Assembly: GCF_008065095.1 (NCBI RefSeq)
Contig: NZ_CP042911.1
Span: 5,700,001-5,732,000, forward strand
Direction: 5' to 3'
Length of the DNA: 32,000 nucleotides
DNA from: Gemmata obscuriglobus
GTDB taxonomy: Bacteria; Planctomycetota; Planctomycetia; Gemmatales; Gemmataceae
In this document: piece after piece, positions 7,438 to 32,000 of the stretch
Layout of the letters: every line of letters starts with the position of its first letter
Numbering within the stretch: the first letter of the stretch is position 1
Program-made: the position numbers and the translations under genes
The notes under the pieces: model-generated
The model's database searches: none
Told to the model about the DNA's origin: nothing
The model's input: only the letters and a program-made list of their open reading frames with translations

Positions 7438-7439
7438 GT

Positions 7440-7907: not shown

Positions 7908-7910
7908 GGC

Positions 7911-8417: not shown

Positions 8418-8468
8418 ACCCCACCTTTCCCTTTCCGCGGCGCGTGCCGGCCGCGCGTCACATTGAAC

Positions 8469-9185
8469 TTAGCTGTCGGACCCGGGCGGCGCAATGGCGT
8501 CGCCCGGTTTGTTTCGCTCGCGGCTCCGCAGTTCGCTCTGCTCGCGCCGCCACTTTGCGACCGCTTGATGGTTCCCGCTCAGTAGGATGTCGGGAACGGC
8601 CAATCCTTCGTACACCCGCGGTCGCGTGTATTGCGGGTACTCCAACCTTCCGTCTTCGCTGTGCGACTCATCCGCGGCGCTCTGTTCATCGCCCAGCACC
8701 CCGGGCATCAGCCTGATGACGGTGTCGATCAGGACCATCGCGGGGACTTCGCCGCCGTTGCACACGAAGTCGCCGACCGAAATTTCGGTCGGGTTCAACA
8801 ACTGTCGGATGCGGTCGTCGAACCCTTCGTAGCGCCCGCACAGCAACAGCAACCGCGGCTCTCCGGCCAACCGCTCGACCACCCGCTGCGTGAGGCGTTC
8901 GCCCGCGGGGGTGAGCATCACCACTTTGCCGGGCGGCTCCGCCTTGGCCCGCACGGCCGCCACACAGTCCACGACCGGTTGCACGCTCAGCACCATCCCG
9001 GGGCCGCCGCCGAACGGCCGGTCGTCCACACGCTGGTGCTTGTTCTGGGTCCAGTCGCGGATGTTCCAGGCATGGACCTGAACGATCCCGGCCTGAATCG
9101 CATCCTCAAGGAGGCTCTGACGCACGTACCCGTCAAATATGCCGGGAAACAACGTCAGAACGTCAAACCTGATGGTGCGGTTCAT
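8469..9185 (-). CDS. trmD: tRNA (guanine37-N1)-methyltransferase
   Basis: FDVLTLFPGIFDGY, RVDDRPFGGGPGMVL, LLCGRYEGFDDRI and SVGDFVCNGGEVPAMVLIDTVIRLMPGVLG are canonical TrmD motifs. Confidence 0.95.
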   Translation of the reverse strand: MNRTIRFDVLTLFPGIFDGYVRQSLLEDAIQAGIVQVHAWNIRDWTQNKHQRVDDRPFGGGPGMVLSVQPVVDCVAAVRAKAEPPGKVVMLTPAGERLTQRVVERLAGEPRLLLLCGRYEGFDDRIRQLLNPTEISVGDFVCNGGEVPAMVLIDTVIRLMPGVLGDEQSAADESHSEDGRLEYPQYTRPRVYEGLAVPDILLSGNHQAVAKWRREQSELRSRERNKPGDAIAPPGSDS

Positions 9186-17967: not shown

Positions 17968-19110
17968 TCACGCAGCGCGAACCGCGGCCGGTGCCGTTTT
18001 CCCGATGAGGAACGCGGCAGCGCGGTCGCACGCGCCCGGAACCGCGGCCCGGGACCGTAGTGCGATCAGGCGATCGACAACTGCCTGACGCCGAGCGGGG
18101 TCATTGAGCCAGCCCACGATTTCGCCCGCCATTTCGGCCGAGCGGTCGTGCCAGGTGGGGTACTCAGGGTACAGCGGCTCGTTGAGCAGCAAGTTGACGA
18201 GGGACATGTACTTAACGTTGATGAGCTGTTTCAGCACCCATCCCTCGACCCGTCCGACGCAGTACATCACAACGGTCGGCTTCGCCCGGTACATCAACTC
18301 CAAGCTGACCGAACCAGATACGGAGAGGCACGCGTCGGCGAGTTCAATCACTTCTGGCGTGCGCCCGACGTGGATCTCGACCGGCAACCCAGTGGGCAGG
18401 AGCGCGCGGACCGCTTCGGCTTGGGTCGCGTTGAACGCCCCGATTAAGAACCGCACGTCCGGTCGGGCCACATGGATCTTCTGCGCGGTTGCGAGCATTG
18501 TGCGCGCGTTGGCGGCAATCTCGCTGTTGCGCGAACCCGGCAGCAGTGTCACCCGCACGCCCGGCTTCGCCCGCTCTTGCACCAAGAAATCGGGGTCGAG
18601 GCGCTGCCGCGCGAGTTCGTCGAAATACGGGTGGCCGATGTAGTGCGTCTGCACCCCGCGCTTCCGATACCATTCGTCCTCGAACGGCAGCGCCGTGAGT
18701 ACGCCCGTGAAGCACTTCCGCACGGTGCGGACGCGCCCGGATCGCCACGCCCAAATCTGCGGGGGAACGAAGAAGTATGTGGGTACGCCGAAGTCGCGGA
18801 TGCGTTTGGCGAGTTCGAGGTGGAAGCCCGGGTAGTCGATCATGACCACCGCATCGGGCCGCTGCGTGCGGATGTGATGAATCGCAAGGTTGCCGATGCG
18901 AAATAGTGCGGGCAGCGCCTGGACAACACCGCGCAGCCCCATCACGGCGAACTTGGGGAGCGGGAACAGAATGTCCGCGCCGGCGGCTCGCATCCCATCG
19001 CCGCCGAAGGCGGTGACGTGCGTGTCAGGAGAATGAGCGCGAAGAGCGCGAACGAGATTCGCGCCGTGCAGATCCCCGCTCGGCTCACCGGCGCTGACGA
19101 AAACCTTCAT
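17968..19110 (-). CDS. lpxB: Lipid-A-disaccharide synthase
   Basis: MKVFVSAGEPSGDLHGANLVRAL, VVMIDYPGFHLELAKR, YFVPPQIWAWRSGR, LLPGSRNSEI and SGSVSLELM are canonical LpxB. Confidence 0.9.
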   Translation of the reverse strand: MKVFVSAGEPSGDLHGANLVRALRAHSPDTHVTAFGGDGMRAAGADILFPLPKFAVMGLRGVVQALPALFRIGNLAIHHIRTQRPDAVVMIDYPGFHLELAKRIRDFGVPTYFFVPPQIWAWRSGRVRTVRKCFTGVLTALPFEDEWYRKRGVQTHYIGHPYFDELARQRLDPDFLVQERAKPGVRVTLLPGSRNSEIAANARTMLATAQKIHVARPDVRFLIGAFNATQAEAVRALLPTGLPVEIHVGRTPEVIELADACLSVSGSVSLELMYRAKPTVVMYCVGRVEGWVLKQLINVKYMSLVNLLLNEPLYPEYPTWHDRSAEMAGEIVGWLNDPARRQAVVDRLIALRSRAAVPGACDRAAAFLIGKTAPAAVRAA

Positions 19111-19156
19111 GATGCGGCATCCTTGCCAGCAAGCAGTTGACCCGAGGGGCGCGACC

Positions 19157-19576
19157 TCACCCCTTGGCGGGAGGCGGAGTCAGCGCGGAAGCGTCCACGC
19201 CTGCAACGCCATTCCCGGCCCCGCGACCAGGCAGTTCGGTCGTCTCGGCGACACGACGGTACCCGAGCGAGCGAAGAACTTCAAGCACTTCGCTCCACGT
19301 CGGGAACGGGCGCCGGTTCTCGCGCTTGTACCGGTCCATTGCCTTCATGAACTCGGTCTCGTCGTCGGAGTAGTCGCGCTCACAGGTGGTCGGGTCGATC
19401 AGCCTGCGCCGCTCACTACTCTTCCGCTTGGCAGCGGCGTTCTCCGCGCGACGACGGTCCGTCGCAACGGGAATGTTGCGCTTGCGGCGGTCGGCGGGAA
19501 AGGGCGTAGTTCCGGACTTGGAACCGTTTGTAGGTTCAACGGCCGCGGGTTGCGGGGCGTTTACTGGGTTCGACAT
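19157..19576 (-). CDS. Hypothetical protein with a basic, disordered N-terminal half and a compact C-terminal module
   Basis: I trimmed it to [16 protein letters not shown] basic stretch [29 protein letters not shown] is followed by [42 protein letters not shown]. No family name recalled. Confidence 0.55.
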
Positions 19577-19949
19577 CTGCGGTGCCTCACAGCCAATAGT
19601 GGGGGGCGGCTGGAGCCAAGCATCCGCGGCCGTCCTGGCCAATCGCGTTTATCGCGATCCTCGGGGATGAACGGGTGTTTCTAAACCTACCCGACGGATG
19701 GGATGTGTCAACCGGAATTCACATACCAACCAAAATCGGGCAACATTTACTGCGGCAGCTTTTGAGGATTAGCACGCGGCGCGAAACGAGGCGATTTATG
19801 CGCCCGCCTTGACTCCAGTAGCCGATCGCAATTCGTAACAAGTTCCGTGCCGAATACCCGCCTGTTCTGCAGAAAGTGGCTGCAATGTTCCACGCAATCG
19901 CGTGATGAATTTTCGGAAGTGACGGATTGTGTGGAACTACGCGACTGTA

Positions 19950-19983
19950 GGGGTTCGGCTTATTAACATGGATGCCGATCCCC
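19950..19983 (-). terminator. Hairpin about 50 nt downstream of the OMP gene stop
   Basis: GGGGTTCGGC (19950-19959) pairs with GCCGATCCCC (19974-19983) at 9 of 10 positions, with a 14-nt AT-rich loop. There is no U-tract. Confidence 0.3.
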
Positions 19984-20035
19984 ATAACCAGTCGCGTGGC
20001 GTTCTCGACGAGGTAAATTGGCCTCGGTTCCCCGA

Positions 20036-21457
20036 TCAGAAGTTGTAGTTGAAGAACGTCATCGCTTCAAACGCCCATGGGCGCGGGCCAGCCACCGGGA
20101 TGCACATGGACGCGCTGAGCGTCGCCCGGTTGAAGCGGAAGTGCAGCCCGCTGGTAATGTTCACCTGGTCCTGGAGGTACACCAGGCCGGCCGGGTTGCG
20201 GCCCGACAGCGGCGTTCGGACGTGGAACTCGACCATCGGCGCGATGCTCGTCAGCCACGCGTCCGGCGCGCGGTAGAGGTAGTACCCCATACCGACGCTG
20301 TTGTTGAAAAGCGTCGGGTCGCGTCCGTCCGTCGGCACAACGAGGCTCGTGATCCCCTGGAAGAACGCGCGGTCCATCACCCGCACGAACCCGAGCCAGG
20401 GTTGGAACAGCACCGAGTGCGGGGCCTGCGATCCGTCTGCCAGGATCACGTCGCCGCTCCCGGTCGGAACCGTCAGCGCCAGCCCGGCCGACACCACGTT
20501 CCCGGTCTGCGCGTCGTTCACGAACGCGTACTTGAAGAGGAGCGTCAGGTCCCCAATGGTGTGTGAACTGCCTAACTCAGACGGGCCGTACTGCTGCTGG
20601 AACGGGAGCCGCATACCGAACGAAGCGTCCCCTCCCAGGAACACCTTTTCGAACCCCACGAGTTGGCGCTGCAGGTCGACCTGCCCCAGCCCGGGGTTCA
20701 GCTTTCCGCCGATGTCGTCGTAGAAGTTGAACCCGCCGTAGAACCGGTCCTGCGGACGCGGGTTGTCATTGTCCGTGATCAGGACGCCGCTGTAGCGTGA
20801 GGCCAGCGTCAGCCGCACGAGGCGTGTCTGCGCCACACGATCACTGACGATCACCGGGTCGTTCACGATCACCGGGGTGAGTGTCGTGGTGTTCGTGATG
20901 GTGGTCGTTGTCGTGCGCCCGCCCTGGGGGTCGGTTGTGGTTCCCGTGGTGGTGGTGCTTGTTGTCGTCGGCGTGAACCCGGTGACCCGCTGGGTGAACC
21001 CAACGACCCGGGGAACGGTGGTGAACCCGGTAGTGATACGGCGCGAGTAGTACACACCGCCGAAGTCGCCGTCGAAGTTCTCGTTAAACGTGCGCGGCGC
21101 GAGCCCCCCCGCCTCGGTCGCCTGCGCGAACGGGTCCACGAGCCGCCGTTCCAGCGGGTTCGGCGGCGACGGGTACGGCATCACCGGAGGGCGGTCTGGT
21201 GGCAGGCTCGGCATCCCCCCGGGCGGTGCGACCGGCGGGTCCATCTGCGGCACCGGCTCGGACGGTGCGGTCGGGATACTCGGGGCCCCGGGCGTCAGCG
21301 GCCCGACGCCCAGAGGCGGGCACGGCACCGTCGCCGGGCGCGAGTGTTTGAACGGACCGCCGGCCGCGATCACCGAAGGGACGACGCGCTCCTGGGCGAG
21401 CGACGATGCGGTCGCAACCCCGATCCCGGCAAGAGCGGAGAGAAGCACCCGGCGCAT
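20036..21457 (-). CDS. Outer-membrane beta-barrel protein (porin/transporter-like) with Pro-rich and poly-Thr N-terminal linkers
   Basis: I trimmed it to MRRVLLSALAGIGVATASSLAQE (signal peptide). A Pro-rich segment is followed by TPTTTSTTTTGTTTDPQGGRTTTTTITNTTT. The C-terminal half has alternating amphipathic strands and ends in the beta-barrel signature ...AMTFFNYNF (terminal Phe). Confidence 0.75.
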   Translation of the reverse strand: MRRVLLSALAGIGVATASSLAQERVVPSVIAAGGPFKHSRPATVPCPPLGVGPLTPGAPSIPTAPSEPVPQMDPPVAPPGGMPSLPPDRPPVMPYPSPPNPLERRLVDPFAQATEAGGLAPRTFNENFDGDFGGVYYSRRITTGFTTVPRVVGFTQRVTGFTPTTTSTTTTGTTTDPQGGRTTTTTITNTTTLTPVIVNDPVIVSDRVAQTRLVRLTLASRYSGVLITDNDNPRPQDRFYGGFNFYDDIGGKLNPGLGQVDLQRQLVGFEKVFLGGDASFGMRLPFQQQYGPSELGSSHTIGDLTLLFKYAFVNDAQTGNVVSAGLALTVPTGSGDVILADGSQAPHSVLFQPWLGFVRVMDRAFFQGITSLVVPTDGRDPTLFNNSVGMGYYLYRAPDAWLTSIAPMVEFHVRTPLSGRNPAGLVYLQDQVNITSGLHFRFNRATLSASMCIPVAGPRPWAFEAMTFFNYNF

Positions 21458-21580
21458 GGGAACGCTCCGTGACCGAGGGACGATGGAACCCCGAGAACGC
21501 GACGCGCCTGCTTTATCGGCACGACACATATTCCCGGTTCAATCGTTCCTTCTCGCGTCTGCGAATACGCCGGTCCCTTC

Positions 21581-23101
21581 CTATTCCCGCGCGACGTGGA
21601 TCGGGACCACCTTTCGAACGACCTTGTTCGGCTCGAACGGGAACCGCTCGGTCGGCTCCATACTGAAACGCCAGACGTAGCGAGACCCGTGCTTACTGCG
21701 TACGATCGTCGGAGCAGGGAGTTCCGTTTCCGAAACGAAAAGAACGAAGTGTTCAACCGCCGTCTTACCGCCACCGTTGATCCCCCCAATGACGAAGGAC
21801 TTTCCATTGGGTGGCAACAGCCTCTGCGCCTGTCCGGGTTTAAGGACATTCCCGCCCAGCACCTCCTGAACGCGCACTTCGCCGTCGGCCTGTACCATGA
21901 GCAGCGTGAAATACACCTTCTGCTCGCACCGCACCTCCAGCGTAAACGGCTCGTCGACCTTGACCTGCGTGACCGGCTTCGCGCCGACGATGAGATCGAC
22001 CTTGAGCTTGAGCGGCGATTCTCGGGGCACCACGTCACCCGCGTACCAAGCCGACAGAGGCGGGATCGGCATGCGCCCCGGGCCCGCACTCGGAACAGAA
22101 ACCGGCTTCAACCCGGCAAACGGCCGTGCCACTGGCCCGTCCGGTGCCATGTCAGTGGGTTCTAAGCGCTGCAACGCGCTCAACGCAAACAGATCTGCGG
22201 CGAGCGGCGAGCGCGGCCCCCACCCGAACACGGCTTTCGGCGCCCAAGCCGGCGCCAGCAGCGACGACGAGAGCCAGTCGCCCCGCAGGTACGGGACCGG
22301 GACCACCGCCCCCCGAAGGCCTGGGAGTTCCTTTAACCGCGCCGCCGGCAGTTCGTCCGGCCGAAGCGCGGTGGCGTGTGGGTTCTCTCGTTCGATCAAC
22401 ACGTCGAGATGGGTCGGGGCGGCGTTCCGGGTCGGCCTGCGCCCTTCCATCAACTCGAACACGTAACCGCCCCGCCATTGCTGTTCGACGAGATCGAACC
22501 GGAACACGGTGCCCGCCTCGTCAACCGGTTCGAGCGCGGCGCCGGTTCGTGCAGACGAACTGAGCGCCAGCGCGATACGGAGATCGCGCTCCGCCGCGCC
22601 GAGGTCCGGGTGGGGCTCTCCGTCCCGCACGAGGTGCGCGAACGAGACGTACTGCTTCGTCTTCGACAGGTCGGGGTTGTTTTTGAACTGGTCGGCGATG
22701 GTGCCGAGGACGTAATCCTCGTCGAACGCGAGCGGGTACCCCGGCGCGCTCGCGTCGATCCATTTCTTGAGGACCGCAACCTCAGCCGGGGTGGGCGCCG
22801 CCCGGTTGCCGGGCGGCATCGAGCCGTCCGCGAGTAACTCGAGGAGGAGCGAGCGTTCCCCCGCAGCAGCGAGCGGGATCGGCTTCTTCTTCTCGCCGAC
22901 CACCTGCGCGTGGTCGAGCAGATTCGTGCGGCTCTTCCCGGGGGCTGCGCTGCCGGTGTGGCACTCGGCGCAATGCCGCTTGAGGATGTCCCGCGCTTTG
23001 ATCGCGAGATCGCCGCGCCCCCGGTGGTCAAGCGGTTCGGCCCCGCGCGCGCCCGCGGAAGCGAGAAGCACTAACGCGACGGCACCAGCAATCGAGCGCA
23101 T
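21581..23101 (-). CDS. Secreted haem-c (CxxCH, PSCyt1-like) protein with a C-terminal DUF4384-like domain
   Basis: Signal peptide MRSIAGAVALVLLASAGARGAEP. ILKRHCAECHTG (Cys codons at 22970-22972 and 22961-22963, His at 22958-22960) followed by GSMPPGN...LKKWIDASAP resembles the planctomycete cytochrome c domain. The C-terminal VKVDEPFTLEVRCEQKVYFTLLMVQADGEVRVQ...HFVLFVSETELP (about 21716-22015) resembles DUF4384. Confidence 0.75.
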   Translation of the reverse strand: MRSIAGAVALVLLASAGARGAEPLDHRGRGDLAIKARDILKRHCAECHTGSAAPGKSRTNLLDHAQVVGEKKKPIPLAAAGERSLLLELLADGSMPPGNRAAPTPAEVAVLKKWIDASAPGYPLAFDEDYVLGTIADQFKNNPDLSKTKQYVSFAHLVRDGEPHPDLGAAERDLRIALALSSSARTGAALEPVDEAGTVFRFDLVEQQWRGGYVFELMEGRRPTRNAAPTHLDVLIERENPHATALRPDELPAARLKELPGLRGAVVPVPYLRGDWLSSSLLAPAWAPKAVFGWGPRSPLAADLFALSALQRLEPTDMAPDGPVARPFAGLKPVSVPSAGPGRMPIPPLSAWYAGDVVPRESPLKLKVDLIVGAKPVTQVKVDEPFTLEVRCEQKVYFTLLMVQADGEVRVQEVLGGNVLKPGQAQRLLPPNGKSFVIGGINGGGKTAVEHFVLFVSETELPAPTIVRSKHGSRYVWRFSMEPTERFPFEPNKVVRKVVPIHVARE

Positions 23102-23119
23102 CGGATCACCTCGCCAGGT

Positions 23120-26100
23120 TCAGCGCTTGATGAGCGGGTCTTTCGGCAGGTCGCGCGGGAACGACGCGGGCGTTTGCGGCCCGCTCAGTCCCGCGCCCCG
23201 GAGCAGCGCGGGGAGTTCCGCGGAGACGTAATCGAACAGTTCGTCGGCCGACACGACCCCGTTGTTGTCGAAGTCCGCTTTGCGGTAGTCCCTGTCCTTG
23301 TCGAGCGCGTTGAGTACAGCCCGCGTGAACAGCCCGTGCTGGTACTTCGCGTGTTCGTAGGACCGCTGACCCTCGTCGCACGCGGCGATAATGAGCGGCC
23401 CCTGCCCGTTGGGCACGCACCGGCGGAGCATGTTTGTGGTCGCGAGTCGGCCCGAGTGGCAGGCGTCAAGAAGCACCACCTTCCGACAGTTAACCTTGGC
23501 CAGCGCCGCGAACAACTCGTCCGCCGCGACCGCCGTTTCTGTCGGTTTCGCGGGCGAGTAGTTCGGCGTGCACAACACGAACGCGCCCTTGTCGCCCGGC
23601 AACCCCGGTCCCACTGTGGGAACCGGCCCGTCGTTCGGCATAAGTACGTCACCGTGGCCCGCGAAGAACACCACCAGCGTGTCGTCCGGCTGAACCTGAT
23701 CGGCGACCGCGCGCAGGGCGTCGAGGAGTTTGCCCCGTTTGGGGTCCAGGTGCGTGTCGGCGCTGGCCGTTTCGTAAAGGAGGTTACCGCCGGCGCATTG
23801 CTTCAGCAGCTTGCCGAGTTCGGTCGCGTCGTTGCGGGCGTGAAGAAGGTCGCCGAAGTTCCGCGCGCCCGCGTTCATCTGGCGGGTGCCGGAGTAGTCG
23901 TTCACACCGACGAGCACCGCGAACAGTCGCGCCGCCGGCGAAGACCGGGGGTTGGGCACCCACTGCACCTCTTCGACCCGGCCGCCTGCCGAGTTGACCG
24001 CAACCACCGTCAAACGATTCGGGCCGGCACGGAACCGGTTCGCCGGAATCGGGTATCGCTCCTCGAATGGCTTCCGCGGGTCCAGTTGCCGCCCCGCACG
24101 GGGCCATTCTTCGATGAGGAAGTCGTTGAGCCACAGCTCGACGCGCTCGGGCAATAGGTCGGGGTTGGTGCCGCGCGCCCGGACGGTGATCGTGACGGGC
24201 AGCCCGGCGTTCGTGACCTCGTGGTGCCCCAGGCCCAATCGCACCGGCGCGGGCTCGGACTTGTTGAACAGGTCGCGGGTCGGGTGCTCATTGCGGGCGG
24301 TTAGGAGCGCCGCCGCCACACCGGCGTCCACCAGGGTCTCCATCACGTCGGGCCGATGGAACAGCCGTTCAAACTGCTGGAGTTGGTAGAACTCCGGGCG
24401 CCCGCCCGGGTCCGGGGCGTTGACGTGCCACCCTACGAGCCGGTCCCCGTTGACCGTTTTGGTGTGGTAGTACGACCCGTGCCACATCCATACGACCCAG
24501 TCGTTCATGCGGCCGGCGCTGTCGAACGCCGGAAACCACTTCCAGGTCGGGCGCTGCCGGACGGTGGTGAGCGTCTCGCGGCGCGGCGTCTTCTCTCCGG
24601 CCGCAATTCCGAAATACAGCTCGATTCTGGGTTTCGGGGCCTTGAGCGCCGCGAGGGCGTCTTGCGGGGTGCCGACCGCCTTCAGCTTCACCGTCCGGTC
24701 GAACACTGTGACCCGGTCCACGGCCAGGAGGTCGAGCACGTCACCCTTCCGCAGGCCGGCCTCCCACGCGGGCGAGCCGGTTTCGAGGGTCACAACCCGC
24801 ACCGCCCCGTTGTGCTCCTCGAACGTCGCGCCGAGGTTCGGCGCGTCCTTCCAATCTTCCAGGGACCACGCCGCGACCGTCTGGTCGGTCCCCCCGGTGA
24901 CGAACCAGGTCTGACTCCTCGCCGCCACGACCGATGTCACCTCGCCCGCGTGGCCGGTGTACACCTTCGTTCCGACGAACCCGCCACGGACCGCGCGCTC
25001 GGGAACCAGTTCGAACAGCGTGCAGCCGTAATAGTGCCCCACGATCACGCGGGTGGGCCGCTTCTCGGACGCGGGGAGGAACGTGTAGCAAGTCGGGGCC
25101 AGATCGCGGAACCGGTCGAGTTCGAGTCGGAACCTCTGCCTCTCGCCCATCTGGGTGCGTTCGACGAACCACTCGTACCGGTTATCCGAGTTCGGCACCA
25201 CTTCCCACCCGTCGGCACTCCGGACCGGTCCGACCCACTTTTGGCCCTCGTCGGAACTCTCCTTCAGGCGCGACAGATCGAACCGGCTCCACGGGCCGCT
25301 GCCCCGCTTATTGGGGTCGAGCGAGCGGGCGTCCCGCGCGGTTTGAATGCCGACCATCTTTCCGTTTTCGGACAGATTAACCGCCCACGGGCGCCGCCCG
25401 CCGCCGCGCACCACCTGCGGCTTCTCGTCGGGTTTGTCGAGTTTTCGCACCGTGATCTCATCGGCATCGCCACCTGCAATCGCGAGGCGCGCGTCTGTCG
25501 GGTGAAAAGCGAGCGCCTCGGCCCGCCCGGTGTGGGTGATGACGTCCGGTTCCGCACCGGGCTTCGCGAGCGGGTCGGCGTAGATCCGAACCTCGTCGTT
25601 CCCCTCGGCGAAGAAGCGCGGCCCCTCCCCCTCCGGCGCGAGGGCGCGACCGACCCCCACCGCCAGCGCGCGCGTCTTCGGGTGCCAGGCGAGGCTGCGC
25701 GGGAACCGGTCCTTGCCGAGTTCGAGGCGCACCGTCTGTTTGCCGTCGGCGCGGCACAGCAGCACCTTGGAGTCCGCACTGGCGACCGCGATCCACCGCC
25801 CGCCGTCGATCCGCTCGACGCGATACACCCGCGCGTCCACGGGTTCGGCGGCGTTCACGTTGAACAGTTCTTTCCCCGGCGGCGGCCGTTCCGGGGTATC
25901 GGCAGCGGTGTCGTCGAACGCGCAGGCATACACCTGACCGCTTTGAGCGACTGAAACCAGGGTGCCGTTCTCGGAGAACCAGATCAGCCGCGGCCGGTTG
26001 AACGGCTCCGACCCGACCGTTCGTTTCGGTAAGTCGTGCTTGCCGACGCGAACCGGCGGCGCCGCGGTGCGCCCGTCCTGGTCCGGCTCGGGAAGCGGCT

Positions 26101-26629
26101 TCGGGTTCCAGAGCCAGAGGCTGCCGTCCGCGGTGCCGAACCCGACCCGACCGTCCGCGTGAAACGCGACCGCCGTGACGATGTTAAAGTTCGCGTCCCC
26201 TTTGCGCACGAGCGGCCACGTGAGTGCGACCGTTTCGCCGGTCGCCCGGTCGAGCACCGCGACCGTGCTGGGTTTCATTCCGTACCCGCCCACCACGACG
26301 TTCTTGCCGTCGGAGGAAATGTCGAGGGCCTGGATGCCGCCGCGCTGCTCGCGCCACGCCCGCCAGCGCAAGACCTGCGCCTTCGCGCGCTCCGTTTCCA
26401 GGCCGCTGCTGGTGTACGGCCAGACCCGCACCACCTTGTCGTCACCCGCGGCGAACAGTAACCGCCCGTCGCCCGAGAACCGCAGAACGTCACAGGCGCC
26501 GAACCGCCCGCCCGCCTCGACCACGATCTCGGGCTCTTCGCGGGACCGGCGGTCGAACTGCTGCCCGCCCGCATCGGGCGCCGTCAGGACGAGAGCGAAA
26601 CCGACCAGTGTGGTAAGAAGGTTGGCCAT
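23120..26629 (-). CDS. Giant multidomain caspase-family (peptidase C14) protein: N-terminal hydrophobic anchor or signal, WD40/beta-propeller region, PDZ, caspase His-Cys domain, C-terminal EF-hand loop
   Basis: The start is probably MANLLTTLVGFALVLTA (26629); the ORF is open to 26710. WD40-like strands: RFSGDGRLLFAAGDDKVVRVWPY, VTGGTDQTVAAWSLEDW. PDZ: GAVRVVTLETGSPAWEAGLRKGDVL (about 24566-24832). Caspase: RLFAVLVGVNDY, VVFFAGHGD (His codon 23654-23656), VVLLDACHSG (Cys codon 23459-23461). Canonical EF-hand loop DFDNNGVVSADE (23240-23275). Confidence 0.85.
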   Translation of the reverse strand: MANLLTTLVGFALVLTAPDAGGQQFDRRSREEPEIVVEAGGRFGACDVLRFSGDGRLLFAAGDDKVVRVWPYTSSGLETERAKAQVLRWRAWREQRGGIQALDISSDGKNVVVGGYGMKPSTVAVLDRATGETVALTWPLVRKGDANFNIVTAVAFHADGRVGFGTADGSLWLWNPKPLPEPDQDGRTAAPPVRVGKHDLPKRTVGSEPFNRPRLIWFSENGTLVSVAQSGQVYACAFDDTAADTPERPPPGKELFNVNAAEPVDARVYRVERIDGGRWIAVASADSKVLLCRADGKQTVRLELGKDRFPRSLAWHPKTRALAVGVGRALAPEGEGPRFFAEGNDEVRIYADPLAKPGAEPDVITHTGRAEALAFHPTDARLAIAGGDADEITVRKLDKPDEKPQVVRGGGRRPWAVNLSENGKMVGIQTARDARSLDPNKRGSGPWSRFDLSRLKESSDEGQKWVGPVRSADGWEVVPNSDNRYEWFVERTQMGERQRFRLELDRFRDLAPTCYTFLPASEKRPTRVIVGHYYGCTLFELVPERAVRGGFVGTKVYTGHAGEVTSVVAARSQTWFVTGGTDQTVAAWSLEDWKDAPNLGATFEEHNGAVRVVTLETGSPAWEAGLRKGDVLDLLAVDRVTVFDRTVKLKAVGTPQDALAALKAPKPRIELYFGIAAGEKTPRRETLTTVRQRPTWKWFPAFDSAGRMNDWVVWMWHGSYYHTKTVNGDRLVGWHVNAPDPGGRPEFYQLQQFERLFHRPDVMETLVDAGVAAALLTARNEHPTRDLFNKSEPAPVRLGLGHHEVTNAGLPVTITVRARGTNPDLLPERVELWLNDFLIEEWPRAGRQLDPRKPFEERYPIPANRFRAGPNRLTVVAVNSAGGRVEEVQWVPNPRSSPAARLFAVLVGVNDYSGTRQMNAGARNFGDLLHARNDATELGKLLKQCAGGNLLYETASADTHLDPKRGKLLDALRAVADQVQPDDTLVVFFAGHGDVLMPNDGPVPTVGPGLPGDKGAFVLCTPNYSPAKPTETAVAADELFAALAKVNCRKVVLLDACHSGRLATTNMLRRCVPNGQGPLIIAACDEGQRSYEHAKYQHGLFTRAVLNALDKDRDYRKADFDNNGVVSADELFDYVSAELPALLRGAGLSGPQTPASFPRDLPKDPLIKR

Positions 26630-26730
26630 AGAGCCCCCGGAGCCACAGGCGGGACCAGGATACCATACACGGACGGGCGGGGTGAGATTCGTGTACACTG
26701 GCGGAACCATTCCTGACCGGGACCGGGCCG
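26630..26730. promoter_or_regulatory. Divergent intergenic region between the caspase gene and the kinase gene; contains short palindromes
   Basis: 101 bp if the caspase gene starts at 26629. TACACG (26666-26671) and CGTGTA (26690-26695) are inverted repeats. GTGTACAC (26691-26698) is an 8-bp perfect palindrome. I did not recognise a promoter consensus. Confidence 0.3.
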
Positions 26731-28593
26731 ATGTCCGACACGCTACCCAACGACGACCGGAACCGACTCACGGCCCGCGCCGACCGGTTCCAGCACGCGC
26801 TTGTAAACGGCGGTGTGACCGACTTCGCGGAATTTCTGGACGGATTGGTCGGCGGGGAGCGGTTGAAGTTGCTGACCGAACTGGTCGCGCGCGAGCTACG
26901 GCACCGCTGGGCCGGCGGAGAACGGCCGCGGATCGAGGAGTACCTCGCCCGGTTTCCCGAACTCGCGCCCGGCGGGGCGGCGCCGCCTGCGCTGATCATT
27001 GAAGAGTACCGCTGTCGAATTCAGGCCGGCGAGCCCCCCGACCCGCTCCAGTTCCGTGACCGGTTCCCGGACCAGTTCGCCGCCGTCCAGGCGGACTTCG
27101 ACGCGGTGACGGCGTCGGGCACGGTGAAAGCGGCGTCGGCGCCGCACCTGCCCCCGACCGCCCGCGGGATGGTGGAGGTGGCGCAGCAGTACGAACTGAT
27201 CCGCGAGCTGGGCCGCGGGATGTTCGGCGAGGTGTGGCTCGCGCGGAAGAAGCCGAGCGGCATCGAGCGCGCGATCAAGATCCTCCACCAGGCCGCGGAC
27301 CGCGAGGCCGGGCAGCGCGAGCTGGTGTCGCTCGAACTGATCAAGAACCTGCGGCACCCGTACATCCTGGCGACCGAAGACTTCTGGGTGACGGAGAACC
27401 GGCTCCACATCGTCATGGAGCTGGCCGAGGGCACGCTCCGCGGGCGGCTGAAGCAGTGCCTCACCGAGGGCCACCCCGGGGTGCCCGCTGGGGAACTGTT
27501 CCGGTACATCGCTGAGGCCGCCGAGGGGCTGGACTTCCTGCACGAGCAACACATCGTTCACCGCGACGTCAAGCCGGACAACATCCTCATTCTGCACGGC
27601 CACGCGAAGGTCGCGGACTTCGGTTTAGCCCGCGCGCAGGCGCAAGGGGTCGAGTCCATGAGCCTCGCGGGGACGCCCGCGTACATGGCCCCGGAAATCT
27701 GGGGCGGCGAGGGCGGCGCGGCCAGCGACCTTTACAGCCTCGCCTTTGCCTACGTCGAACTGCGACAGGGGCACTCGCCGCTCAAGCCGTGTCCGTTCGG
27801 CGAGTTGATGCTCGCGCACTACGAGGGCCGGTACGAGTTCAGCGAGGTTGTGACCGAACCCGAGCGCGCGGTGTTGCGTCAAGCGCTGGCGGCAAAACCG
27901 CACGAGCGCTACCGGTGCTGCACGGACTTCGTCGCGGCGCTGTCGGTCGCACTCGGAATACCGTTCGCCGCTACGGGGCGGCACTCCGCCACCACACCGC
28001 CGCTCCCGCCCCCGCCGCTCAACGGCGGTTCGGTAGCCGCGTTCGCCAGCGGCAGCCGGCCCGCCATCGACACGGCCACAGCGGGCGGTACGGTCGTCAT
28101 CGATTCGCTGCCAAAGAAGCCGCGCCCCAAGGCCGTTCCCGATCCCGTGGAACCGGAGCCTCCGGAGCCCGAACTCTTCGGAGAGCCGGAACCGGATGCC
28201 GCTACCCGCCGGTTCGGACCGCTGGTCGTGGCCGCCACTCTGGCGCTGGTCACGCTGGTAGCGGTCGGTGCCTGGGCACTGTTCAACCGCCCCGGTGGTG
28301 TGCCAACATCCGTCACAGAAGCCCCACCGCCCCCCCCCCACACACACCCAAGGATGACACCCTCGCACCGCCCCCCCGGCGGGTCGATCCGCGCCCGCCA
28401 GAACCGCCAGGTCCGAAATGGGTGTTCCCGGTGGGCACAACGCCAGAGGCCGGAGCGAAAGAAATTGCGCTCGTCGGGAAAATGGTCCCGGAGTGGGTCA
28501 CCGCCCAGCACAACGGCAAAGCGGTACGGTTCCGACTCATCAGCGGACCGCCAGGGCCGTCGGTCGCGTTTTACATCTCCGAAACGAAGGTGA
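26731..28593 (+). CDS. Membrane Ser/Thr protein kinase (Hanks type); the reading frame after the poly-C tract at 28330 is probably not the native one
   Basis: GRGMFGEVWLA (G-loop), AIKIL (Lys codon 27277-27279), HRDVKPDNIL (27559-27582), DFG (27616-27624), GTPAYMAPE, a Pro-rich linker, and the TM helix LVVAATLALVTLVAVGAWALF (28219-28284). Residues after APPPPP are Arg/Ser-rich and look like nonsense. Confidence 0.85.
   Translation: MSDTLPNDDRNRLTARADRFQHALVNGGVTDFAEFLDGLVGGERLKLLTELVARELRHRWAGGERPRIEEYLARFPELAPGGAAPPALIIEEYRCRIQAGEPPDPLQFRDRFPDQFAAVQADFDAVTASGTVKAASAPHLPPTARGMVEVAQQYELIRELGRGMFGEVWLARKKPSGIERAIKILHQAADREAGQRELVSLELIKNLRHPYILATEDFWVTENRLHIVMELAEGTLRGRLKQCLTEGHPGVPAGELFRYIAEAAEGLDFLHEQHIVHRDVKPDNILILHGHAKVADFGLARAQAQGVESMSLAGTPAYMAPEIWGGEGGAASDLYSLAFAYVELRQGHSPLKPCPFGELMLAHYEGRYEFSEVVTEPERAVLRQALAAKPHERYRCCTDFVAALSVALGIPFAATGRHSATTPPLPPPPLNGGSVAAFASGSRPAIDTATAGGTVVIDSLPKKPRPKAVPDPVEPEPPEPELFGEPEPDAATRRFGPLVVAATLALVTLVAVGAWALFNRPGGVPTSVTEAPPPPPHTHPRMTPSHRPPGGSIRARQNRQVRNGCSRWAQRQRPERKKLRSSGKWSRSGSPPSTTAKRYGSDSSADRQGRRSRFTSPKRR
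28330..28339 (+). repeat. C10 homopolymer at the frame break of the kinase gene; a second C7 run lies at 28371-28377
   Basis: Counted directly: position 28330 plus 28331-28339 are all C. The upstream sensible frame has codon starts at 1 mod 3 and the downstream sensible frame at 0 mod 3. Confidence 0.9.
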
Positions 28594-29096
28594 CGAACGC
28601 CGAGTACCGGGCCGGTGGCGACGATGCTCCAGTCGTGAACGTCACCGCGACCGACGCGCAGGCGTTCGCGCGGTCCGCCTACAACGGCTCGCTACCGACC
28701 GCCGAGGAGTGGGACCACGCGGCCGGCTTCCACGACCAGCAGGGGCAGGAAGGACCGAGCCGACGGTCGGGGACCCCGTGGGTCAACCGGGCGGCGGCCG
28801 GTCCCGTCCGACGCCCGGGCGGAGCGGACATCAGCTACTTCGAGTTGCTAGATATGTCGGGTAACGGACGTGAATGGACGCGCACAATTCTCAACGACGG
28901 AAGCGGAAACGACGTGCGCGACGTGGCATCCCCAACGGGCACCGAAAAGGTGGTACTACGCGGCCGCAACTTCGCACTGGATCGGCCGCTCACGTTCAAA
29001 ATGCTGGAAGCGGAACGAAACATCCAGCCCCTGACAGCGCCCGCGAACCGTCCGAGCCCGTTCACGGGCTTCCGTGTGGTACTCAAAGTGCCCTGA
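28422..29096 (+). CDS. FGE-sulfatase (SUMF1/EgtB/PvdO-like) domain segment, most likely the displaced extracytoplasmic C-terminus of the kinase gene
   Basis: The frame is open from 27789, but it only makes sense after 28329: PPPHTPKDDTLAPPPRRVDPRPPEPPGPKWVFPVG. FGE-type motifs: FYISETKVTNAEY, VNVTATDAQAFA, LPTAEEWDHAAG, DMSGNGREWTRT, VLRGRNF, TGFRVVL. Possible independent starts are GTG 28422/28431 and ATG 28482. Confidence 0.7.
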   Translation: MFPVGTTPEAGAKEIALVGKMVPEWVTAQHNGKAVRFRLISGPPGPSVAFYISETKVTNAEYRAGGDDAPVVNVTATDAQAFARSAYNGSLPTAEEWDHAAGFHDQQGQEGPSRRSGTPWVNRAAAGPVRRPGGADISYFELLDMSGNGREWTRTILNDGSGNDVRDVASPTGTEKVVLRGRNFALDRPLTFKMLEAERNIQPLTAPANRPSPFTGFRVVLKVP

Positions 29097-29105
29097 CCGC
29101 GGCTC

Positions 29106-30110
29106 TCACGCCCGGTTCTTGCGCTCACGCCACCGGTTCAGGCTCACGTTCGCGACCAGCAGCGCCCCGATGAGCACATACTGCATTTCGACCGGAACGT
29201 TGAACAGGCTCACGCCGTTCTTGATAAGGATGAGGATCGCGACCCCGAGCATCGCCCCGACCACCCCGCCCTTCCCGCCCGACAGGCTCGCCCCGCCGAT
29301 CACAACCGCGGTAATCACGTCGAGTTCGAGTTGCTCGCCGAGCGTCGGGTTGCCGCTGTTGCTGTGGGCGAACATGATCACCCCGGCCCAGCCGGTGAGC
29401 AGCCCTGCGAGGGTGTATACGAGCACCTTGGTACGGGTGACGTTCACCCCGCACAGCCGTGCCGTCGCCTCGTTCGACCCGACGGCGTACAGGTGGCGCC
29501 CGAATACCGTGAGCCGCAACAGCACGACCGTCAGGAGTGCGAGTGCAACAAGTGACCACAGCCCCGGGTTGGTGAGCGACACACGGCCGACGGTGTTCAC
29601 CCATTCGGGAGTGCCGTTGAGCGGGAACGGGAGGGTAGCGCGTCCGGCGAGCCACACGGCGGCCCCACGTGCGATTCCGAGCATCCCCAGCGTGGCGACG
29701 AACGGCGGTAGCTGGAGTTTCGTCACGAGCAACCCGTTTACGAAACCCACGAGCCCGCCGGCGAGCACCCCGCACACGCACGCCACAACCGAACTCGTGG
29801 GTGACGGGTCGGACGCGGTGTACATCGCAGTGTAGACGCGCATCGTAACAACCGTCACAAGGGCGACGGTAGCACCGACGGACAGGTCGATGCCGCCGCT
29901 GATGAGTACGAGCAGCATCCCCAGCGCGACAACCGCCGGTATCGTCCCCTCATGCAGCAGCACGCGCAGGTTCCCGAGGCTCAGGAACGTGCCCAGGTCG
30001 CCCTTGATGCCGATGAGCGCGGTGAACAGCGCCAGCACAGCGGCGAAGCCGATCCACGGTCCCGCCGGGAGCTTGAACGCGGTGGAAGCAGGCGCAGGAG
30101 AGGTTGCCAT
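29106..30110 (-). CDS. Sugar ABC transporter permease (CUT2, RbsC/AraH-like)
   Basis: I trimmed it to MATSPAPAST. Motifs GGIDLSVGATVAL, FVATLGMLGIARG, YAVGSNEATARLCGVNV and VITAVVIGGASLSGGKGG are typical of the BPD_transp_2 family. The 32 extra N-terminal codons of the listed ORF lie inside the IS element. Confidence 0.85.
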   Translation of the reverse strand: MATSPAPASTAFKLPAGPWIGFAAVLALFTALIGIKGDLGTFLSLGNLRVLLHEGTIPAVVALGMLLVLISGGIDLSVGATVALVTVVTMRVYTAMYTASDPSPTSSVVACVCGVLAGGLVGFVNGLLVTKLQLPPFVATLGMLGIARGAAVWLAGRATLPFPLNGTPEWVNTVGRVSLTNPGLWSLVALALLTVVLLRLTVFGRHLYAVGSNEATARLCGVNVTRTKVLVYTLAGLLTGWAGVIMFAHSNSGNPTLGEQLELDVITAVVIGGASLSGGKGGVVGAMLGVAILILIKNGVSLFNVPVEMQYVLIGALLVANVSLNRWRERKNRA

Positions 30111-30118
30111 CGGTACTT

Positions 30119-30135
30119 CAGTAGTTTCAAGTTGG
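30119..30135. repeat. IS terminal inverted repeat (permease-proximal end)
   Basis: CAGTAGTTTCAAGTTGG. Similarity extends a few more bases if a 1-nt indel is allowed. Confidence 0.85.
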
Positions 30136-31335
30136 CGGCTTGGTTTTGTTGGCCGATCGTGCAGTAGTAATGGACTTATTTTCGCCATCTGTAGGTGCCA
30201 GCCCATCGGCCAACAGTATCAGGCATACCGCCGCCAGTGTCCACCCGAGGCCGCGGGCTGAGCGGGACCACAACCAGGCGTTACGCAGGATCAGCCCGAC
30301 GGCGACCCACAGGAGTCGCACGACCCCATCGGTGGTCGAGGTCCGGGGCCGAACCTGCCCCAACTGGCGGTAGCTGCTCTCGATCCCGAATCGGGTCCGG
30401 TACAGGTCCCGAATCGCCACCGGGCTCCCGCTCACCCGCCACGCCGCGTACAGTAACTTCTTGCTCCGCCGGCCCCCGGTCCGCCGGTACCGGTAGCTCT
30501 TGTGAGCGATCACCACGTGCACCCGCACCGAGGTGCCCCGATCCGCGTGGGTGTACGCATATCGACCCGCGCCCCGCCGCCGCACGGCCCGCAACCCGAC
30601 CCCCTTCACCCCGGGCCGGGGCTTGCGGCCCCGGACCACGGCCGGGATCACGAACGGCACACCCCGCGCCTGGAGCAACCGCATCACCGCGATCGAGAAG
30701 AACGCCTTGTCCAGCAGCGCGACCCGGACCGTAACCCGTGCCGCCGTCACCTGATCCAACAGCCGGGTGAGCACCGCGGTCATCGGCTCCTTCTCGCCCA
30801 CGGCCGTCAACCCGAGCGTGTACCGGTCCGGTCCCCCGACGAGGCACGCGGTGGCGTACGTGTGGAACGTGTGGGTGCCGCCGGCCCCCTTGGACCGGGT
30901 GGTGTCCCGGTTCGGCGTCCCGAAGTACCCGATCCGGTGGTAGTCGATCGCGACCCGAGCCGCCCGCTTCCGCTTGCCGAGCGGGGCGTGGAGGGCCGGC
31001 CGCAACCGCCGCTCGAGGGTGCGGCGCCGCTTGGGCAGCGTGAGGTACAAGCAATCCCAGATGGCCTGCCCGGACGGGGCGTCGGCGATCGCGGCACAGG
31101 CCGCGGCCACCGAGCGGGCGAACGCCGCGGCGAACAGCACCACCCGCCACACCACCTCGGGTGTACAGGTGCGGCGACGCTTGGGCAGTTGGACCGCACG
31201 GCCGAGCCAGTCGGTCAGGACCGGACGGAGGTGCCGGGTGGCGTGGGCCGGGGTGGCTCGGATAGACTGACGTTTGGGTCGCATGGGGGCTCCGACAGTG
31301 GAGGCGTGGTAACCACCATTGACCGGTAAACCCAT
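30127..31335 (-). CDS. DDE transposase (IS4-superfamily-like)
   Basis: 402 aa, or 385 aa from the MRPKRQS start at 31284 (GGAG upstream). Candidate DDE residues are in VAIDYH, ALLDKAF and YRTRFGIESSYRQL (Y-x2-R-x3-E signature). The stop falls inside the terminal IR. The IS family is not assignable by eye. Confidence 0.8.
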   Translation of the reverse strand: MGLPVNGGYHASTVGAPMRPKRQSIRATPAHATRHLRPVLTDWLGRAVQLPKRRRTCTPEVVWRVVLFAAAFARSVAAACAAIADAPSGQAIWDCLYLTLPKRRRTLERRLRPALHAPLGKRKRAARVAIDYHRIGYFGTPNRDTTRSKGAGGTHTFHTYATACLVGGPDRYTLGLTAVGEKEPMTAVLTRLLDQVTAARVTVRVALLDKAFFSIAVMRLLQARGVPFVIPAVVRGRKPRPGVKGVGLRAVRRRGAGRYAYTHADRGTSVRVHVVIAHKSYRYRRTGGRRSKKLLYAAWRVSGSPVAIRDLYRTRFGIESSYRQLGQVRPRTSTTDGVVRLLWVAVGLILRNAWLWSRSARGLGWTLAAVCLILLADGLAPTDGENKSITTARSANKTKPPT

Positions 31336-31358
31336 GCGGCCCGCTACTCATAAATCGC

Positions 31359-31375
31359 CCAACTTGAAACTACTG
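31359..31375. repeat. IS terminal inverted repeat (ATPase-proximal end)
   Basis: CCAACTTGAAACTACTG, the exact reverse complement of 30119-30135. Confidence 0.85.
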
Positions 31376-31396: not shown

Positions 31397-32000
31397 TTAC
31401 GGGTTCCCGGTCGCGGTCGCGATGACCGCTTCCGGTGTCCATTCGGAAACGGGGCGCACGGCCGAGAGCCGGCCGCGGGTCATCACCGCGAGGGTGTCAC
31501 ACACGCCGAACAGTTCCGGCAGGTAGCTGCTCACCACCAGAACCGCCTTGCCACTCGCCGCGGCCTCGCCGATGAGGCGGTAAATGTCGGACTTGCTGCC
31601 GACATCCACGCCCTTCGTTGGCTCGTCGAGCAGCAGTACGTCGGCACGCTGGTGGAACAGCCGAGCCAGCGCGACCTTCTGCTGGTTCCCGCCGCTCAAT
31701 TCACCGACCGGCTGCCCCGCATCGCGGAACTTCACCCCGAACCGGTTCAGTACCTCACCGACCGCCGCACTCAGACGCGACCGCGACAGGAAGCCGGCGC
31801 GGGCGCCTTCGTCGAGCCGACTGAGAGCGACGTTGTCCGCGATCGGTAGCTCCAGCGCCAGGCCCTCCGTCTTGCGGTCCTCGCTGACGAACCCGAGCCC
31901 CTGCCGAATACGATCGCGCGGCGTCGCCTGCCCTCCGCCGAAGGCACCAATTCTGACGCGCCCGGAGCGAACCGGATCGAGCCCGTACACCGCCCGAAGG
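31397..32000 (-). CDS. Sugar ABC transporter ATP-binding protein (CUT2, RbsA/MglA-like); only the C-terminal half is present and the 5' end lies beyond the window
   Basis: GFVSEDRKTEGL, LSGGNQQKVALARLF, LLLDEPTKGVDVGSK and VLVVSSYLPELFGVCD are typical of the second nucleotide-binding domain of dual-domain CUT2 ATPases. The frame is open to the window end. Confidence 0.85.
   Translation of the reverse strand, partial: LRAVYGLDPVRSGRVRIGAFGGGQATPRDRIRQGLGFVSEDRKTEGLALELPIADNVALSRLDEGARAGFLSRSRLSAAVGEVLNRFGVKFRDAGQPVGELSGGNQQKVALARLFHQRADVLLLDEPTKGVDVGSKSDIYRLIGEAAASGKAVLVVSSYLPELFGVCDTLAVMTRGRLSAVRPVSEWTPEAVIATATGNP

Follow-up and report, generated by a model that had tools for sequence, protein, structure and literature searches.

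Caspase homologues are widespread among bacteria, very few of them have a known role, and they are usually cast as intracellular effectors of cell death or defence. In prokaryotic metacaspases, WD40 is the commonest companion of the caspase domain (10.9%), FGE-sulfatase accounts for 4.9%, and EF-hand motifs and DUF4384 have also been reported with caspase homologues (PMC3501461; PMC6426788). Documented fusions join C14 to FGE-sulfatase, C14 to WD40, and kinases to FGE-sulfatase or DUF4384 (PMC3501461; bioRxiv 10.1101/2025.01.12.632604; PMC6426788). The present analysis concerns a cluster of four genes on the Gemmata obscuriglobus chromosome, located within a stretch of 32,000 nucleotides (nt) of contig NZ_CP042911.1 (positions 5,700,001 to 5,732,000 of the forward strand; hereafter the window). 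The cluster encodes a WD40-PDZ-caspase protease, a haem-c/DUF4384 protein, a predicted outer-membrane beta-barrel and a divergently transcribed Hanks-type Ser/Thr kinase with an FGE-fold domain. These analyses revealed that the cluster is kept together where its housekeeping flanks have been lost, and that all of its parts except the kinase domain are predicted to reside in the periplasm or the outer membrane. There appears to be no earlier description of the conserved arrangement, of the export of the WD40-PDZ-caspase or of the association of this protease with a FapF-like barrel. The parts themselves belong to known families. An earlier note on this DNA knew of no characterised system of this organisation, and our literature searches agreed with it, since they returned only domain surveys and unrelated work, and the full-text search found no paper describing this cluster.

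Related arrangements have been described in other contexts. In the Fap system of Pseudomonas, secretion through FapF requires FapD, a Sec-exported periplasmic cysteine protease that may cut the FapF linker, and a PTG motif is common to FapF and the COG4313 channels (PMC5557850). In type III-E CRISPR Craspase the protease Csx29 cleaves Csx30, and in some systems of the Craspase type the DUF4384 protein is the protease substrate (bioRxiv 10.1101/2022.08.17.504292). Caspase, FGS and Ser/Thr kinase domains also recur in predicted counter-invader systems, for which the 'FGS' (FGE-fold) domains were argued to be lectin-like binding domains (PMC8195603). The features of the Gemmata cluster, with positions counted from the first letter of the window, are as follows:

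20036..21457, minus strand: gene of the predicted outer-membrane beta-barrel protein (473 amino acids from the methionine picked in the earlier note)
21581..23101, minus strand: gene of the haem-c/DUF4384 protein (506 amino acids)
23120..26629, minus strand: gene of the WD40-PDZ-C14 protease (1169 amino acids)
23237..23275, minus strand: EF-hand-like loop of the protease, DFDNNGVVSADEL (residues 1119-1131; PROSITE pattern PS00018)
23288..23923, minus strand: Peptidase_C14 domain (residues ~903-1114; PF00656, 52.8 bits against a cut-off of 21.4, E 5.8e-14)
24695..24841, minus strand: PDZ-like domain (residues ~597-645; PDZ_6 22.1 bits and PDZ_2 20.2 bits, both below the cut-off of 27)
26630..26730: divergent intergenic region of 101 nt between the protease operon and the kinase gene
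26731..29096, plus strand: gene of the Hanks-type Ser/Thr kinase with FGE domain, interrupted by a frameshift in the window
~27190-27909, plus strand: Pkinase domain (PF00069, 146.8 bits, E 1e-42)
28210-28287, plus strand: single transmembrane helix of the kinase (residues 494-519), followed by a proline-rich linker
28330..28339, plus strand: homopolymer C10, followed by (AC)4, in the proline-rich linker of the kinase gene; site of the frame swap, with a length difference of 1 nt
~28608-29081, plus strand: predicted periplasmic FGE-fold domain (FGE-sulfatase PF03781, 61.2 bits, E 1.6e-16)

Direct reading of the sequence confirmed the three minus-strand open reading frames (ORFs) and the catalytic codons of the protease that the earlier note had given, together with its spacers of 101 nt between the divergent kinase and protease genes, 18 nt between the protease and haem genes, and 123 nt between the haem and barrel genes. 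The ORF starts are identical in the gene calls of another G. obscuriglobus assembly.

Compared with multidomain orthocaspases and C14 metacaspase-like proteins, the Gemmata protease has the same C14 fold with a His-Cys dyad and the same WD40 companion. In contrast to them, its WD40 region is N-terminal, the protein is predicted to be exported whole, a PDZ-like domain lies between the propellers and the protease, the FGE and DUF4384 domains are carried unfused by neighbouring proteins, and the family is found almost only in Gemmataceae. The likeness to Pseudomonas Fap (PMC5557850) lies in the pairing of two components, as each operon encodes, for Gemmata by prediction, a 12-stranded barrel whose periplasmic linker is disordered and a cysteine protease exported by the Sec route; the PTG motif is present in both, and the best PDB matches of the Gemmata barrel model are FapF chains. 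However, the Gemmata protease is of the C14 type and that of Fap of the C39 type, the cluster lacks homologues of FapA, B, C and E as well as amyloid repeats, no coiled coil is predicted in the Gemmata barrel, and Fap has nothing that corresponds to the kinase or the haem protein. Pfam searches likewise detected no family of the Fap amyloid partners (FapA-E) in any gene of the cluster.

Craspase resembles the Gemmata cluster in that both encode a caspase-fold protease beside a protein with a DUF4384 domain, which is a DUF4384-like one in Gemmata, and by analogy this suggests that DUF4384 may serve as a protease-docking module. Craspase is cytoplasmic and RNA-guided and uses a CHAT-type protease, whereas the Gemmata partner has a haem c domain and a signal peptide; no CRISPR/Cas genes were seen among the genes scanned. 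The counter-invader systems of Kaur and Aravind (PMC8195603) share the domain vocabulary of the cluster, and in both cases the FGE fold is interpreted as a binding domain of the lectin-like kind. They are, however, intracellular systems with STAND/MoxR-type NTPases and effector-associated domains, often accompanied by diversity-generating retroelements, none of which is present in the Gemmata cluster.

The conservation of the neighbourhood was determined at 72 Gemmatales loci around protease homologues from species-representative genomes, using tblastn and hidden Markov models built from the partner proteins. Sequence extended at least 2 kb downstream of the protease in 48 loci, at least 3 kb upstream in 43, and at least 5 kb on both sides in 28, and these numbers serve as denominators. 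In 38 of the 48 loci, the protease is directly followed on the same strand by the haem-c/DUF4384 gene (26 loci), by another gene designated gene X (22) or by both (10), and in most relatives only tens of nt separate the protease match from the start of the next ORF. An orthologous kinase-FGE gene is located divergently upstream of the protease at 15 of 43 loci, and the barrel is present at 12 of 28. The full set of kinase, protease, haem protein and barrel was found at L001, L002, L004, L007, L010, L015, L018, L042 and L064, with L070 as a tenth locus in which an ORF is split. Protease identity in these 9-10 genomes ranges from 96% down to 34-36%. The LpxB, HisF, permease and ABC ATPase genes of the window are kept only in L001, L002, L007 and L017, all of which belong to the genus Gemmata. 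Since the cluster is kept down to 34-36% identity where these housekeeping flanks are lost, the data support a functional unit, as the earlier note had argued from the domain vocabulary spread over neighbouring genes. The cluster looks vertically inherited, and was seen almost only in Gemmataceae.

A second and independent arrangement of the same partnership occurs in a paralogue clade of the protease (28-34% identity; L057, L058, L060, and L072), in which the barrel gene lies divergently upstream of the protease and gene X downstream. Gene X is a fifth partner that is absent from the window and, like the frameshift and the cysteine-free FGE-like domain described below, had escaped the earlier note. 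It encodes a conserved secreted protein of ~450 amino acids with an N-terminal region of the form VGVLKFLV...LN..LA..LE and a C-terminal beta domain, and is exemplified by L019 4702-6108, L042 13434-15002 and L058 13529-15160, in addition to ~25 other loci. Searches with gene X gave neither a Pfam family nor a PDB sequence match. Profile-profile comparison with the DUF4384 protein showed a weak match between the C-terminal beta domains (E 0.0038, probability 9%), leaving a relationship unproven. Taken together, there is good evidence for functional linkage. The protease and its downstream partners, gene X or the DUF4384 protein, have the strongest case; the barrel ranks second and the kinase last.

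The spacer at 26630-26730 contains the motif TGTAC ... GTATG(C/G)TAT, which is common to the window, L001, L002, L004, L007 and L052. This promoter-like motif is kept within the genus Gemmata and is oriented toward the protease operon. A promoter scan of positions 19000-29500 returned zero sigma-70-like sites and likewise did not detect the conserved spacer motif, and a terminator scan of the same region gave terminator-like sites at chance level, which is uninformative on operon structure. In two related metagenome-assembled genomes (MAGs), an insert of ~0.8 kb separates the kinase and protease genes (L010 ~7380-8160 and L034 ~8055-8845), and contains two small overlapping ORFs that resemble, by eye, an antitoxin/PIN-toxin pair.

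The protease consists of a signal peptide, a WD40 propeller region, a PDZ-like domain, beta-rich linker domains and a C14 caspase-fold domain. WD40 (PF00400) scored 58.5 bits against a cut-off of 27, and models of the propeller family span residues ~40-620. Within the C14 domain, His992 (codon CAC, 23654-23656) belongs to the motif FFAGHGD and Cys1057 (codon TGC, 23459-23461) to LDACHSG; neither residue varies among 20 homologues. Of the NCBIfam models, caspase_w_EACC1 ('caspase, EACC1-associated type') comes closest, with 84.5 bits, below its cut-off of 140. Of the domains that had been assigned from the letters, C14 and WD40 thus exceed their cut-offs and the PDZ domain falls below threshold, with many homologues of the protease carrying precomputed PDZ matches (PF17820 or PF13180). 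The EF-hand is present as a pattern and not as a profile: Pfam EF-hand gave no match in the protease, and PS00018 recurs in 17 of 20 homologues in the same column of the alignment, as a single loop and not as a pair.

The protease is 100% identical to the NCBI entry 'Caspase domain protein [Gemmata obscuriglobus]'. Of the 167 homologues found, most span the full length at 39-66% identity, and all named ones are from Gemmataceae or Planctomycetes. With the C-terminal half as query, 183 representative clusters were retrieved at E<=1e-30; most of the best 150 are ~1100-1240 amino acids long and have the match at the same position, which argues that the architecture is fixed. When the whole protease was searched against PDB sequences, only WD40 structures, designed and natural, appeared as best matches, and with the C14 domain alone the closest solved structures had E>0.1 and the S1 pocket could not be aligned. 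Tricorn and Prc/CtpA, the latter with adaptor lipoproteins, appear to be built on the same logic as the Gemmata protease, with propellers and PDZ domains (a PDZ-like one in Gemmata) before the protease, a periplasmic location, predicted for the Gemmata protein, and sometimes envelope adaptors. They are S41 serine proteases, whereas the Gemmata enzyme has a caspase fold, and there is no sequence relationship. A distant homologue of 1126 amino acids (30% identity) was also observed in the Pirellulaceae MAG JABDKS010000598.1 (L076 4533-11381), where it directly follows a 1129-amino-acid gene without a Pfam match and has genes for T2SSE and a prepilin peptidase as neighbours. The Gemmata partner genes are all missing from this locus.

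The barrel protein (locus tag GobsT_48660) comprises a signal peptide, a proline-rich disordered N-terminal stretch of ~100 amino acids, a short helix, a long threonine-rich beta-hairpin and the barrel. Its AlphaFold2 (AF2) model has a mean predicted local distance difference test score (pLDDT) of 76.9, with ~82-95 across the barrel, and 12 barrel strands were counted from the DSSP strand list. Foldseek matched the model with probability 1.0 to FapF (5o65/5o67/5o68, E about 1e-8) and to the COG4313 channel 4rl8 (E 2e-7), and ranked FapF/COG4313 ahead of autotransporter barrels. The PTG motif is found at residue 331; across the family T329, P331 and T332 do not vary, and F473 at the C-terminus is nearly invariant. 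With its 12-stranded fold and PTG motif, the protein is predicted to be a channel of the FapF/COG4313 type, and the model and the Foldseek result support the outer-membrane beta-barrel proposed in the earlier note. The protein gave no Pfam, NCBIfam or PADLOC match. Its 143 homologues carry no Pfam domain, and every organism-named one belongs to Gemmataceae or Planctomycetes. A threonine-rich low-complexity tract, TTSTTTTGTTTDPQGGRTTTTTITNTTT, at window positions 20840-20960 of the minus strand (residues ~165-205), sits in the predicted beta-hairpin, the strands of which are ~37-40 residues long (136-175 and 181-217). This tract could be a glycosylation or surface-exposed region.

In the 506-amino-acid protein, a central domain separates an N-terminal mono-haem cytochrome c domain of the planctomycete type from a DUF4384-like beta-sandwich at the C-terminus. 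C44, C47 and H48 of the CxxCH motif and D92-G93-x-M95-P96-P97 (DGSMPP) are invariant in 30 homologues. Pfam analysis across 30 family members detected Cytochrome_CBB3 in 19, PSCyt1 in 9 (best E 6.8e-9) and DUF4384 in 7 (E<0.01), and the window protein itself gave no cytochrome profile match at E<0.01. According to these sequence features the protein is a planctomycete/class I cytochrome c with predicted haem attachment. The match to DUF4384 (PF14326) in the window protein covers positions 2-80 of the 81 of the model and reaches 20.7 bits against a cut-off of 27 (E 4.6e-4); a G. algarum protein of 95% identity is named 'DUF4384 domain-containing' by NCBI. The earlier designation as a CxxCH/DUF4384-like protein therefore holds for the haem motif, which is invariant and accompanied by cytochrome matches in the family, and is sub-threshold for DUF4384 in the window protein. 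The AF2 model of this protein has a pLDDT of 85.3, and a PDB fold search with it gave weak matches (E above 0.001), mostly to beta-sandwich or immunoglobulin-like folds, and no analogue of the whole protein. Every organism-named homologue among the 40 found is from Gemmataceae or Planctomycetes.

The kinase-FGE gene had been reported as a single gene at 26731-29096. These 2366 nt are no multiple of three and do not form one ORF in the window: the kinase frame (26731-28593) decays beyond the transmembrane helix to an arginine-rich out-of-frame tail, and the FGE part is read in another frame (ORF 27789-29096). An intact ORF of 788 amino acids covering kinase, transmembrane helix and FGE domain, with C11 instead of C10, is present in CP025958.1 (L073) and in an Illumina-based Logan assembly of public sequencing reads (L074), both from the strain of the window. 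The remaining 18.9 kb compared with CP025958.1 showed 0 mismatches and 1 gap, and a third contig (L075) stops inside the C run. In G. algarum, the proteins of which are 92-96% identical, there is a single kinase ORF and no C run. An exact look-up of the truncated kinase product of 620 amino acids returned no record, and the C10 allele had no independent support. Because the C11 assemblies and G. algarum are intact and the 620-amino-acid product is unrecorded, the frame break is most likely an assembly (homopolymer) error, and would be a strain variant at most. The kinase gene was treated here as one 788-amino-acid protein in the repaired frame.

Phase variation at the C run was considered and not adopted, given that C11 is found both in a PacBio-era genome and in an Illumina-based assembly standing for seven similar places; the lack of the run in G. 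algarum is a further point against it. The same evidence from C11 and G. algarum leaves a programmed frameshift or transcriptional slippage unsupported. A C9 run at a similar place was observed in L007, and the kinase gene of Gemmata sp. IIL30 (L002) has a frame break that is not at a long run. The C9 and C10 runs and the break in L002 are probably sequencing errors in GC-rich runs.

In the repaired protein, the Pkinase domain, the transmembrane helix and the FGE domain of the earlier description all stand. The catalytic motifs GRGMFGEV, AIK, HRDVKPDN, DFG and APE are present and place the kinase in the Hanks type. The FGE-sulfatase match is above its cut-off of 23.3 bits and covers model positions 85-254 of 255. 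Residues 520-788, which follow the transmembrane helix, contain zero cysteines when read by eye, and the catalytic (copper-binding) cysteine pair of FGE/SUMF1 is thus missing. FGE catalysis is excluded by this lack of cysteines, and the kinase ectodomain is, as far as its sequence tells, an FGE-fold, C-type-lectin-like binding domain and not an enzyme.

An N-terminal hydrophobic signal-like segment is present in each of the protease, the haem protein and the barrel. In the protease family, this segment varies in sequence and ends in an AxA-Q-type junction, after which the mature protein would begin with the strongly conserved sequence QQxDRRSRDEPE. A signal peptide is missing from the kinase, which has a single strong transmembrane helix, so that its catalytic domain is predicted to be cytoplasmic and its FGE-fold domain periplasmic. 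All parts except the kinase domain are predicted to share the periplasm or the outer membrane. The three signal peptides, the transmembrane helix of the kinase and the predicted outer-membrane barrel are in accordance with the envelope association suggested in the earlier note. Its proposal that the kinase exerts phospho-control over the protease did not survive this comparison, because the protease is predicted to be exported and the kinase domain to be cytoplasmic, which makes direct phospho-control of the mature protease implausible. As the compartments differ, any communication between protease and kinase would have to run through the ectodomain.

We tentatively favour the reading that the cluster is an envelope module in which the protease makes limited, regulated cuts in the periplasm at a channel of the outer membrane, and the kinase signals this to the cytoplasm; we hold it to be quite possible, a little short of probable. 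From the gene content, the domains, the predicted topology and the conserved neighbourhood given above, the following steps may be inferred. One operon would yield three exported proteins, namely the protease, the haem-c/DUF4384 protein and the barrel with its proline-rich periplasmic tether. The protease would act in the periplasm at or near the barrel, with the propellers and the PDZ domain choosing substrates. The EF-hand-like loop may confer Ca2+-dependent activity, and the DUF4384 domain of the neighbouring protein may dock on the caspase fold and be its partner or its substrate. The outcome of cleavage would be maturation or gating of something that crosses the barrel, or a cut in the barrel's own tether. 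The lectin-like domain of the kinase would sense the same periplasmic ligand, complex or cleavage product and relay it to the cytoplasm by phosphorylation, so that the signal would run from the envelope to the kinase and not from the kinase to the protease. The pairing of FapD with FapF serves as a precedent that makes this scheme plausible, and the fusions of C14, WD40, FGE-sulfatase, DUF4384 and kinase domains documented elsewhere fit domains that work together. As for trans-envelope proteolytic signalling, with an exported orthocaspase at a FapF-like translocon, DUF4384 as a general module for docking on caspase-fold proteases or for being cut by them, in the manner of Craspase and Csx30, gating or maturation of channel or cargo, and readout by the FGE-fold domain of the Hanks kinase, we regard it as conceivable and rather doubtful.

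Several observations weigh against the envelope module. The PDZ and DUF4384 matches are below the Pfam thresholds in the window proteins, signal peptides were judged by eye and by hydrophobicity with no trained predictor, and the evidence as a whole consists of genes, predicted topology and synteny. The Foldseek TM-scores of the barrel are moderate (0.55-0.66 on the target), and PF13557 (Phenol_MetA_deg) gave no match in the window barrel and a match in 1 of 36 homologues at E 0.04. COG4313 channels are importers, and the transport direction could thus go either way; the cluster also contains no amyloid-type or other obvious cargo gene. The kinase is found beside the protease in only about one third of the informative loci, 10 of 48 loci are without both gene X and the DUF4384 protein, and L011, L013, L014, L038 and L050 have long flanks on both sides and no partner, which shows that adjacency is not obligatory.

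The partner-free loci bear on the view that the genes have no joint function and are neighbours by descent only, in a genome that has many kinases and WD40 proteins and many cytochromes of the planctomycete type. This view is in line with the 10 of 48 loci without both downstream partners, with the 28 of 43 without the kinase, and with unrelated kinases within 10 kb of the protease at many loci, which indicate a high kinase background. However, orthologous partners stay adjacent where every other flanking gene has changed, the spacer between protease and DUF4384 genes is 18 nt with gaps of tens of nt in most relatives, and the barrel has become re-associated with a paralogous protease in a different orientation, so that mere descent is a poor candidate. 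More can be said for export or surface assembly of the Fap type, a sub-case of the favoured envelope module, in which the barrel exports a polypeptide and the protease matures the substrate or opens the channel, the substrate being the DUF4384 protein, gene X in the relatives, or unlinked cargo. FapF chains are the best structural matches of the barrel, both barrels have a long disordered periplasmic linker and then a short helix before the barrel, secretion through FapF depends on the periplasmic cysteine protease FapD, and barrel and protease are linked in two different gene arrangements. The cluster nevertheless lacks repeat-rich or amyloid-like cargo, FapA-E homologues and a C39 protease, no coiled coil is predicted at the N-terminus of the barrel, and its second-best match, COG4313, is an importer; Fap-type export is therefore unlikely.

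An importer fold of the COG4313/FadL-like kind would suit nutrient acquisition, in which the barrel takes in peptides, proteins or hydrophobic compounds, the propeller-gated PDZ protease digests them in the enlarged planctomycete periplasm and the kinase senses the supply. Propellers, PDZ domain and protease together resemble the tricorn-type and tail-specific degradative proteases, and reported protein uptake and degradation by G. obscuriglobus would also speak for it. Caspase-fold enzymes are, however, usually limited, site-specific proteases and not bulk degraders, the haem protein would have no obvious role, and no peptide transporters are linked, the neighbouring ABC system being of the BPD_transp_2 type and lost from the neighbourhood outside the genus Gemmata. 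We therefore give nutrient uptake little credence. The same low weight is given to the proposal of the earlier note that the cluster serves programmed cell death or abortive infection as a proteolytic switch, in which the kinase phosphorylates the caspase and Ca2+ (through the loop) and redox (through the haem protein) would be conjectural inputs. The caspase domain is indeed closest to a type from conflict systems ('caspase, EACC1-associated', 84.5 bits), the domains recur in predicted counter-invader systems as described above, and the EF-hand-like loop is conserved. Against this, the score of the EACC1 model is under its cut-off of 140, the protease is predicted to be exported and the kinase domain to be cytoplasmic, and in the genes of the cluster Pfam detected neither a STAND NTPase nor an effector-associated domain, a TIR domain or a nuclease. 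PADLOC (PADLOC-DB 2.0) returned only generic matches, to a caspase (36 bits) and to the kinase domain, and none for the barrel or the haem protein. The cluster lies in a stable housekeeping context with a window-like G+C content and no mobile context of its own, and full-length homologues persist family-wide and are not patchy or island-like. A role in cell death or abortive infection is very improbable on these grounds.

A large exported WD40-PDZ-caspase family with fixed partners is a concrete, testable case of a periplasmic caspase fold, and could account for the frequent fusion of C14, FGE-fold, DUF4384 and kinase domains in other phyla. If trans-envelope signalling were true, bacterial caspase homologues would have a conserved role in the envelope without cell death.

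The genes flanking the cluster are of housekeeping type, as had been noted before, save for an insertion sequence of 1.26 kb. They encode ZnuA, an ABC transporter, an M20 peptidase, a class I aminoacyl-tRNA synthetase, TrmD and Ffh, as well as a PQQ propeller protein, T2SSE, HisF, a DtxR-like regulator and LpxB. The G+C content of the cluster matches the rest of the window, and a tRNA scan found no tRNA. Downstream of the barrel gene, an ORF of 139 amino acids (19157-19576, minus strand) has no Pfam match, is called as a gene in CP025958 and is kept only within the genus Gemmata (L002, L007, and L017); it is probably outside the cluster. Two long ORFs, at 12839-14227 (minus strand) and 111-2066 (plus strand), are without a confident family, the first having a weak propeller match. 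The insertion sequence comprises the following features:

30119-31375: insertion sequence of 1257 bp with perfect 17-bp terminal inverted repeats, CAGTAGTTTCAAGTTGG
30127-31335, minus strand: DDE_Tnp_1 transposase ORF of the insertion sequence

This element separates the ABC ATPase gene (31397-31990) from the permease gene (29106-30206). The same insertion is found in CP025958, and G. algarum is without it, its ABC ATPase and permease genes abutting each other. The overlap in the alignment with G. algarum suggests a target duplication of ~7 bp.

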